A stretch of DNA of 458 nucleotides from Escherichia coli (GTDB lineage Bacteria; Pseudomonadota; Gammaproteobacteria; Enterobacterales; Enterobacteriaceae): the NCBI RefSeq assembly GCF_003334305.1, contig NZ_QOWS01000076.1. The stretch is one strand, 5' to 3'. The first letter of the stretch is position 1. Each line of letters begins with the position of its first letter. Under the pieces are notes generated by a model. The model did no database searches. It had not been told where the DNA came from and saw only the letters and a list, made by a program, of their open reading frames with translations. A program made the translations under genes and the position numbers. Of the stretch, positions 1 to 458 are shown piece after piece.

Positions 1-458
1 GGGTATGACGCTGCCGGGCGCATCACCGTGCTGACCAACGAGAACGGCAGCCAGTCCACGTTCCGGTATGACCCGGTCGACAGGCTGACGGAGCAGCGTG
101 GCTTTGATGGCAGGACGCAACGTTACCATTATGACTTGACCGGAAAACTCACGCAGAGTGAAGATGAGGGGCTTATCACCCTCTGGCATTACGATGCGTC
201 AGACCGTATCACCCGGCGCACGGTGAACGGCGACCCGGCGGAACAGTGGCAGTATGATGAACACGGGTGGCTAACCACCATCAGCCATACCAGTGACGGC
301 CACCGAGTGTCGGTCCACTACGGCTATGACGATAAAGGCCGCCTGACGGGCGAACGGCAGACGGTGGAGAACCCGGAGACGGGGGAGATGCTGTGGGAGC
401 ATGAGACGGGGCATGCGTACAGCGAACAGGGGCTGGCGACCCGTCAGGAGCCGGACGG
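1..458 (+). CDS. Rhs-family YD-repeat protein (polymorphic toxin shell/core region), internal fragment; partial at both 5' and 3' ends
   Basis: Frame 1 is open across the whole window (152 complete codons, no stop), while + frames 2 and 3 hit stops almost immediately (TGA at nt 32-34 and nt 6-8). The translation contains six recognisable YD-repeat units with Y-D dipeptides at codons 2-3, 23-24, 44-45, 64-65, 85-86 and 109-110, each followed by a G/D-R-L/I-T-like motif (e.g. RYDPVDRLT, RYHYDLTGKLT, WHYDASDRIT, YGYDDKGRLTG). GC is about 62% by hand count, consistent with the established GC-rich Rhs core. The paralog (rhsA/B/C/D-like) cannot be resolved from an internal core fragment, so no gene symbol is given. 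Confidence 0.92.

Follow-up and report, generated by a model that had tools for sequence, protein, structure and literature searches.

[quoted passage not shown] Descriptions of YD repeats in E. coli Rhs cores go back to about 1990, and those of the window were already known and did not represent a new feature. We considered it almost certain that the window encoded part of the YD-repeat wall of such a toxin, with its hairpin modules kept by structural selection. The repeats carried one unit more than had first been noticed, and they were older than the divergence of the Rhs proteins that share them.

The window within an rhs core gene

Frame +1 was open over the whole window (152 codons) and contained no boundary of the gene, so that the window was represented by a single coding feature:

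1-458, plus strand: internal fragment of the rhs core ORF, without start or stop; residues 646-797 of the 1499-residue RHS element core protein

Coding in the remaining five frames was rejected, since each of them contained 2-12 stops and no YD dipeptide. An antisense ORF of 47 codons starting with ATG was present on the minus strand (window 271-414), where frame 3 had only 2 stops. This ORF has most likely arisen as a side effect of the coding sequence with its 62% GC, and a gene at this place was not supported. A search of both strands of the window against Rfam at E up to 1 revealed no RNA element.

The identity of the gene was established by megablast, according to which the window was 100% identical to positions 3593936-3594393 of NZ_CP025851.1, inside the CDS WP_097346590.1 annotated as "RHS element core protein". 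Among the complete E. coli genomes, many chromosomes matched it at 100% identity over all 458 nt, and 3708 of the 5426 genomes carried relatives of the window, at a median of 3 places each. An identity of at least 99% was reached by 271 records; 1980 records fell into the range of 90-95% and 1331 into that of 80-90%. Of the 9837 matching places, 14 were located on plasmids rather than on chromosomes. The full-length host gene was read in strain 510016, where a 1499-codon CDS contained a 100% match to the window.

Profile searches gave the same assignment at the protein level. Namely, the window alone aligned over its whole length with the RHS_core model NF041261, covering positions 644-795 out of 1261 (E 1.9e-90), and the whole host protein scored 2554 bits against this equivalog over residues 4-1254, the cut-off being 2000. 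It also matched TIGR03696 (Rhs_assc_core). According to Pfam, the host protein possessed a DUF6531 domain at residues 48-124, which is the N-terminal plug in Tse5, 14 RHS_repeat matches (nine with E <0.001, one at 0.001 and four weaker) and an RHS domain, that is, the RHS C-terminal plug, at residues 1151-1185. Two further motifs were located outside the window: the aspartyl protease motif DPxG-18-DPxG at residues 1228-1253 and PxxxxDPxGL at residues 1245-1254, the latter followed by a C-terminal tip of 245 residues.

Repeat units and their hairpin register

The translation of the window followed the motif (Y/aromatic)-D-x-x-G-R-L-(I/T/V), which recurred about every 20-21 residues, and consisted of six YD units and one YS unit that came 31 residues after the last of them. 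The earlier note, made from the letters alone, had placed YD dipeptides at codons 2, 23, 44, 64, 85 and 109, which are 21, 21, 20, 21 and 24 codons apart. The translation reproduced these positions and spacings exactly, as well as the coordinates and peptides of the individual units.

The periodicity itself was seen in a BLOSUM62 autocorrelation of the protein, with peaks at lag 21 (z 3.1) and lag 42 (z 3.4). Family-wise, the observed maximum z was reached in 97 of 2000 shuffles, which was marginal for so short a sequence, and therefore the motif count and the profile matches should be taken as the stronger evidence. In the DNA, the signal at a lag of 63 nt was weak (z 2.1; 197 of 2000 codon shuffles reached the observed maximum z). 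Such values, together with the shortness of the window, would be compatible with a chance or compositional effect of GC-rich DNA with no true repeat behind it. However, six YD dipeptides were not reached in any of 20,000 shuffles of the 152 residues (9 Tyr and 14 Asp). Moreover, Pfam RHS_repeat (PF05593) matched significantly three times, at residues 2-39 (3.5e-9), 85-119 (1.3e-5) and 44-74 (7.7e-4), and TIGR01643 (YD_repeat_2x) exceeded its cut-off of 15.8 bits with a score of 48.9 (E 5e-13). The YD columns were also conserved in the 29 homologues that we aligned, down to about 32% identity, and the predicted structure had a regular hairpin register. Given these observations, an origin of the periodicity by chance was vanishingly improbable, and both the period and the membership in the RHS_repeat/YD-repeat family that the earlier note had proposed were borne out.

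The first two YD intervals were invariant at 21 residues in all 29 sequences. K-12 RhsA had His (RYHHD) where the third YD of the window has its Tyr (codon 44, nt 130-132), and about half of the distant homologues had Arg instead of Tyr at codon 109. Substitutions at the Y position have been reported to be tolerated in Tse5, and these two cases can be considered as examples of it.

The structural role of the units was examined in an AlphaFold model of host residues 295-1262. Its 29-sequence alignment was composed of the query core, K-12 RhsA, K-12 RhsD and 26 representative homologues, and the underlying search of 1.84 billion representatives returned 144,403 proteins at E up to 0.001. Several of the best representatives (P0008, P0033, P0043, P0091 and others) were proteins of 3000-7800 residues in which the Rhs core was matched in up to 25 stretches; these were very long YD-repeat proteins rather than single cocoons of the usual size. 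The model had a mean pLDDT of 87.3 and a pTM of 0.80, and blocks of 10 residues over the window averaged 83-94. The predicted fold was a closed beta-cocoon with a TM of 0.80 to Tse5 and 0.77 to RhsA. In a Foldseek comparison with the PDB, Tse5 ranked first (E 3.9e-70) and was followed by Tse15, RhsA, RhsP and Tre23-Rhs1, while the teneurins and the Tc toxin BC components ranked after these bacterial Rhs effectors.

Within the window, strands and turns alternated strictly in the model. The Tyr of each YD, and likewise of the YS, was predicted to close a strand, and the five-residue turn (DAAGR, DPVDR, DLTGK, DASDR, DEHGW, DDKGR or SEQGL) started at the following D or S. Consecutive hairpins were joined by Gly-containing connectors of 2-6 residues (NENGS, GFDGR, EG, NG, DG and NPETGE). 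The units are listed below as first strand / turn / return strand.

1-36, plus strand: YD hairpin 1, cut by the window start; G-Y / DAAGR / ITVLT; YD at nt 4-9; from RHS_repeat 2-39, unit score and model
52-99, plus strand: YD hairpin 2; QSTFRY / DPVDR / LTEQR; YD at nt 67-72; from motif, unit score and model
115-165, plus strand: YD hairpin 3; TQRYHY / DLTGK / LTQSED; YD at nt 130-135; from RHS_repeat 44-74, unit score and model
172-225, plus strand: YD hairpin 4; LITLWHY / DASDR / ITRRTV; YD at nt 190-195; from motif, unit score and model
232-294, plus strand: YD hairpin 5; DPAEQWQY / DEHGW / LTTISHTS; YD at nt 253-258; from RHS_repeat 85-119; strands of 8 residues
301-369, plus strand: YD hairpin 6; HRVSVHYGY / DDKGR / LTGERQTVE; YD at nt 325-330; strands of 9 residues
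388-450, plus strand: hairpin 7, degenerate; MLWEHETGHAY / SEQGL / ATRQE; YS at nt 418-423 in place of YD; from homologue columns and model

The first strand of hairpin 1 (GGLTRSMGY) started upstream of the window. The register of the model agreed with the cryo-EM description of Tse5, where 40 hairpins with the consensus YDXXGRLV form a barrel, DXXGR is the hairpin turn in which Gly gives torsional freedom, and Tyr points toward the cavity (PMC10684867). Thus, the beta-hairpin shell anticipated by the earlier note was recovered in the prediction, with YD at the strand end and DxxGR as the turn, and the model superposed on the solved Rhs cocoons.

The seventh hairpin had been overlooked in the earlier note. 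It occupied codons 130-150 (HAYSEQGL), after an interval of 31 codons, and Pfam RHS_repeat produced no match on it. In our unit scan it was a sub-threshold candidate (WEHETGHAYSEQGLATR), its score of 5.1 being above 99.5% of the null and below the family-wise threshold of 7.6. However, the columns under Y140 and S141 contained Y in 18 and D in 18 of the 29 homologues. Therefore, codons 130-150 genuinely formed a seventh unit, the D of which had turned into S. Accordingly, the claim of six units at nt 4-348 held for the six YD dipeptides but not for the end of the array at nt 348, because the seventh unit lay at nt 388-450 and the run also extended upstream.

In the whole host protein we detected at least 21 units with adjacent spacings of 20 to 30, and the six YD units of the window belonged to a run of at least ten regularly spaced ones (21, 21, 21, 20, 21, 21, 20, 21 and 24). 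These units were identified by a BLOSUM-profile scan with a threshold derived from shuffles. It replaced an initial HMM scan, which merged domains, and a position-specific scoring matrix scan, which was overfitted, since both missed plain units such as DGKRSATEYDKRGRPVS.

Age of the array and the longer last interval

No repeat of the units could be recognized in the DNA. On average, the five full units shared 29% amino-acid and 45% nucleotide identity. Tandem Repeats Finder (minimum score 30) reported no tandem array in the window, and a search for short repeats produced only matches of 2-3 copies with 73-91% identity, which looked like chance. Their spacings were unrelated to the period, except for one 15-mer at a distance of 63 nt (match D4, 80% identity). 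Between units, the identity was 0.50 at codon positions 1 and 2 and 0.34 at position 3, the latter against 0.32 expected by chance from the third-position composition of the window. Moreover, the same codon was used in only 20 of the 49 cells with identical amino acids. The near-chance identity at third positions and the low number of shared codons supported the view that the repeats were old and were kept by selection at the protein level.

The regular period of 20-21 codons and the single 15-nt match at the 63-nt spacing could also be expected after a recent tandem duplication of a 63-nt unit, in which case the likeness of the units would reflect their recency rather than structural selection. 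The absence of an array in the Tandem Repeats Finder output and the randomised third positions argued against such an event. In addition, K-12 rhsD and rhsA contained these units at unchanged lengths, as did homologues at 30-40% identity, so the array was older than the divergence of these proteins. We therefore regarded recent duplication as highly improbable. The earlier note had described the repeats as conserved in the protein and degenerate in the DNA, and had attributed this to structural constraint. Both statements agreed with our results, since the synonymous sites had been randomised between units.

The earlier note had also suggested a small insertion in the last YD unit because its interval (from YD 85 to YD 109) was longer than the others. 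Across the 29 homologues the length of this interval indeed varied: it was 20 in 9 sequences, 24 in 8, 26 in 5 and longer in the others, and the 4-residue difference fell at codons 97-100. On the other hand, the 24-codon interval and the 31-codon one following it aligned without gaps with both K-12 rhsD and rhsA. Since the window was gap-free against RhsD (81% DNA and 80% protein identity) and RhsA (73% and 70%, respectively), the 24-codon form was old and there was no recent insertion. Sequence comparison thus portrayed the site as indel-prone in the family, and the 24-codon form as an old one that was normal for the E. coli Rhs cores.

In the model, the strands became longer along the window (5, 6, 5, 6, 6, 7, 6, 8, 8, 9, 9 and 11 residues), and consequently the intervals lengthened to 21, 24 and 31. 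The hairpin strands around the last YD interval were predicted to have 8 and 9 residues as compared to 5-7 in the earlier hairpins, so that the extra residues would be spread over both strands of the hairpin. Thus, variation of the length at this site was real, but a discrete or recent insertion did not fit the longer strands and the form common to RhsA and RhsD.

The longer strands and the indel-prone connectors (codons 97-100 and 124-129) might mark a special region of the wall, for example an opening or a contact used at toxin release or VgrG loading. We gave this idea only a slim chance. The longer strands and both connectors were common to all E. coli Rhs cores, and a mere widening of the barrel would be an alternative account of the strand lengthening.

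Locus, related systems and proposed role

In strain 510016, the rhs gene was part of a type VI secretion cluster, in which it came immediately behind hcp and vgrG. The order on the same strand was hcp, vgrG, rhs, a hypothetical ORF of 125 codons and an ISAs1 transposase (L001:11411-12547), which was followed by yafV, ivy and fadE, while tssE, tssC and tssB were encoded on the strand opposite to rhs. The hypothetical ORF (L001:10565-10942) overlapped the end of the rhs stop codon by a single base and had no matches in NCBIfam. Judging from its position, this ORF of 125 codons was likely to be the cognate immunity gene.

The C-terminal tip of the host protein occupied residues 1255-1499 (L001:9828-10562), directly after DPLGL. 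There were no matches to it in Pfam (all 245 residues) or in NCBIfam (residues 1263-1499). Nevertheless, tip residues of about 1276-1429 matched the solved CdiA-CT tRNA nucleases 5j5v, 5j43 and 8zyc with weak but significant E values of 2e-6 to 3e-6. This similarity suggested that the tip may be a tRNase toxin common to CDI and Rhs systems.

The composition of the locus differed between its parts. The GC content was 0.634 in the core and 0.620 in the window, and fell to 0.486 in the tip and to 0.370 in the ORF downstream. Compared with its flanks, the rhs gene (L001:6066-10565) was part of a compositional mosaic, with a GC content of 0.63 in the core, 0.56 in vgrG, and 0.29-0.49 in the tip and the downstream region. 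A GC-rich core with a sharp drop of GC in the tip and downstream of it is known for Rhs elements, which are classically considered to be composite (PMC2935791). The mosaic observed here fitted the classical view that cores and tips were of separate, foreign origins.

The closest known systems were the Rhs element core proteins of E. coli (K-12 RhsD and RhsA), which belonged to the same gene family and shared all unit lengths with the window, including the 24- and 31-codon intervals. However, the window represented a different allele or subfamily, and the host gene differed from them in its C-terminal tip as well as in its locus, being beside a T6SS cluster and yafV-ivy-fadE. This position suggested that the gene may belong to the RhsG-H subfamily, which reportedly goes back to Wang, Zhao and Hill (1998).

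Tse5 from Pseudomonas aeruginosa (8cp6) was the best solved relative. It matched the whole host protein with an E value of 4e-113, its residues 547-668 aligned to window residues 2-121, and its structure had a TM of 0.80 to the model at 32% identity. Both proteins had the YDxxGRL consensus and the same role of the DxxGR turn (PMC10684867). In contrast, Tse5 came from another genus and its toxin is pore-forming, whereas the tip found here resembled the CdiA-CT tRNA nucleases. Furthermore, the HMMER repeat register between Tse5 and the window shifted by a few residues at codons 77-100, pointing to indels that separate the two sequences.

Other solved T6SS Rhs cocoons also consisted of a spiral YD-repeat beta-sheet shell: RhsA (7q97), Tse15 (8uxt and 8uy4), RhsP (8h8a), Rhs1-Tre23 (7pq5) and the cores from Advenella and Salmonella bongori (8qja-8qjd). 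They had significant sequence matches to the window itself and a TM of 0.55-0.78 to the model, but their identity was 21-27%, and their N-terminal clade domains and toxins were different. The Tc toxin BC components (4igl and 4o9x) and the teneurins (6fb3 and others) possessed the same kind of shell (Foldseek probability 1.0), but with 11-17% identity, lower TM values, another architecture and another biology. Assignment of the window to the teneurin/Tc-toxin family was rejected, because TEN_YD-shell was matched in Pfam only at E 0.088 and the corresponding structures ranked well below the Rhs effectors.

Based on these comparisons, we propose the following role for the window. It would encode roughly a seventh of the wall formed by the YD repeats. 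Each unit of about 21 residues would fold into a beta-hairpin, starting with a strand that has an aromatic end (usually Tyr) and a five-residue turn D-x-x-G-(R/K), and continuing with a return strand from L/I-T and a short connector with Gly that leads to the following unit. One after another, the hairpins would add up to one long antiparallel sheet that spirals into a closed cocoon, and this cocoon would hold the C-terminal toxin until its delivery, with the DPxG-18-DPxG aspartyl protease plug cutting the toxin off. Selection may then have kept the residues of the turn and of the packing (Y, D, G, R and L), while the rest, including synonymous sites, would have drifted. Encapsulation, self-cleavage and T6SS/VgrG delivery have their basis in homologues that were solved and tested (PMC10684867; PMC3150448). 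By analogy with them, the host protein may likewise encapsulate its toxin, cleave itself after DPxGL and be delivered by the T6SS on VgrG.

Earlier, the YD repeats of Rhs proteins, WapA and teneurins were seen mainly as a surface that binds carbohydrates or other ligands rather than as the wall of a container, and the older literature does tie the YD repeat to carbohydrate binding and a role at the cell surface (PMC2935791). However, all close solved homologues were closed cocoons around a C-terminal toxin (PMC10684867), and the host gene, which adjoined vgrG and hcp, encoded both a protease plug and a toxin tip. We thus considered ligand binding as the main function to be decidedly unlikely. 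An additional binding role of the outer face of the shell would be compatible with all our results, but it was unneeded to explain the repeats.

Thus, the window was best understood as part of the toxin-enclosing wall. Since the role of the hairpins in such a cocoon was already solved for several homologues, the result carries little weight as a discovery, although the reading made from the raw sequence alone proved to be correct. What was added here was the hairpin register at the level of residues, the previously overlooked seventh unit, and the recognition of the longer unit as an old feature of the family.
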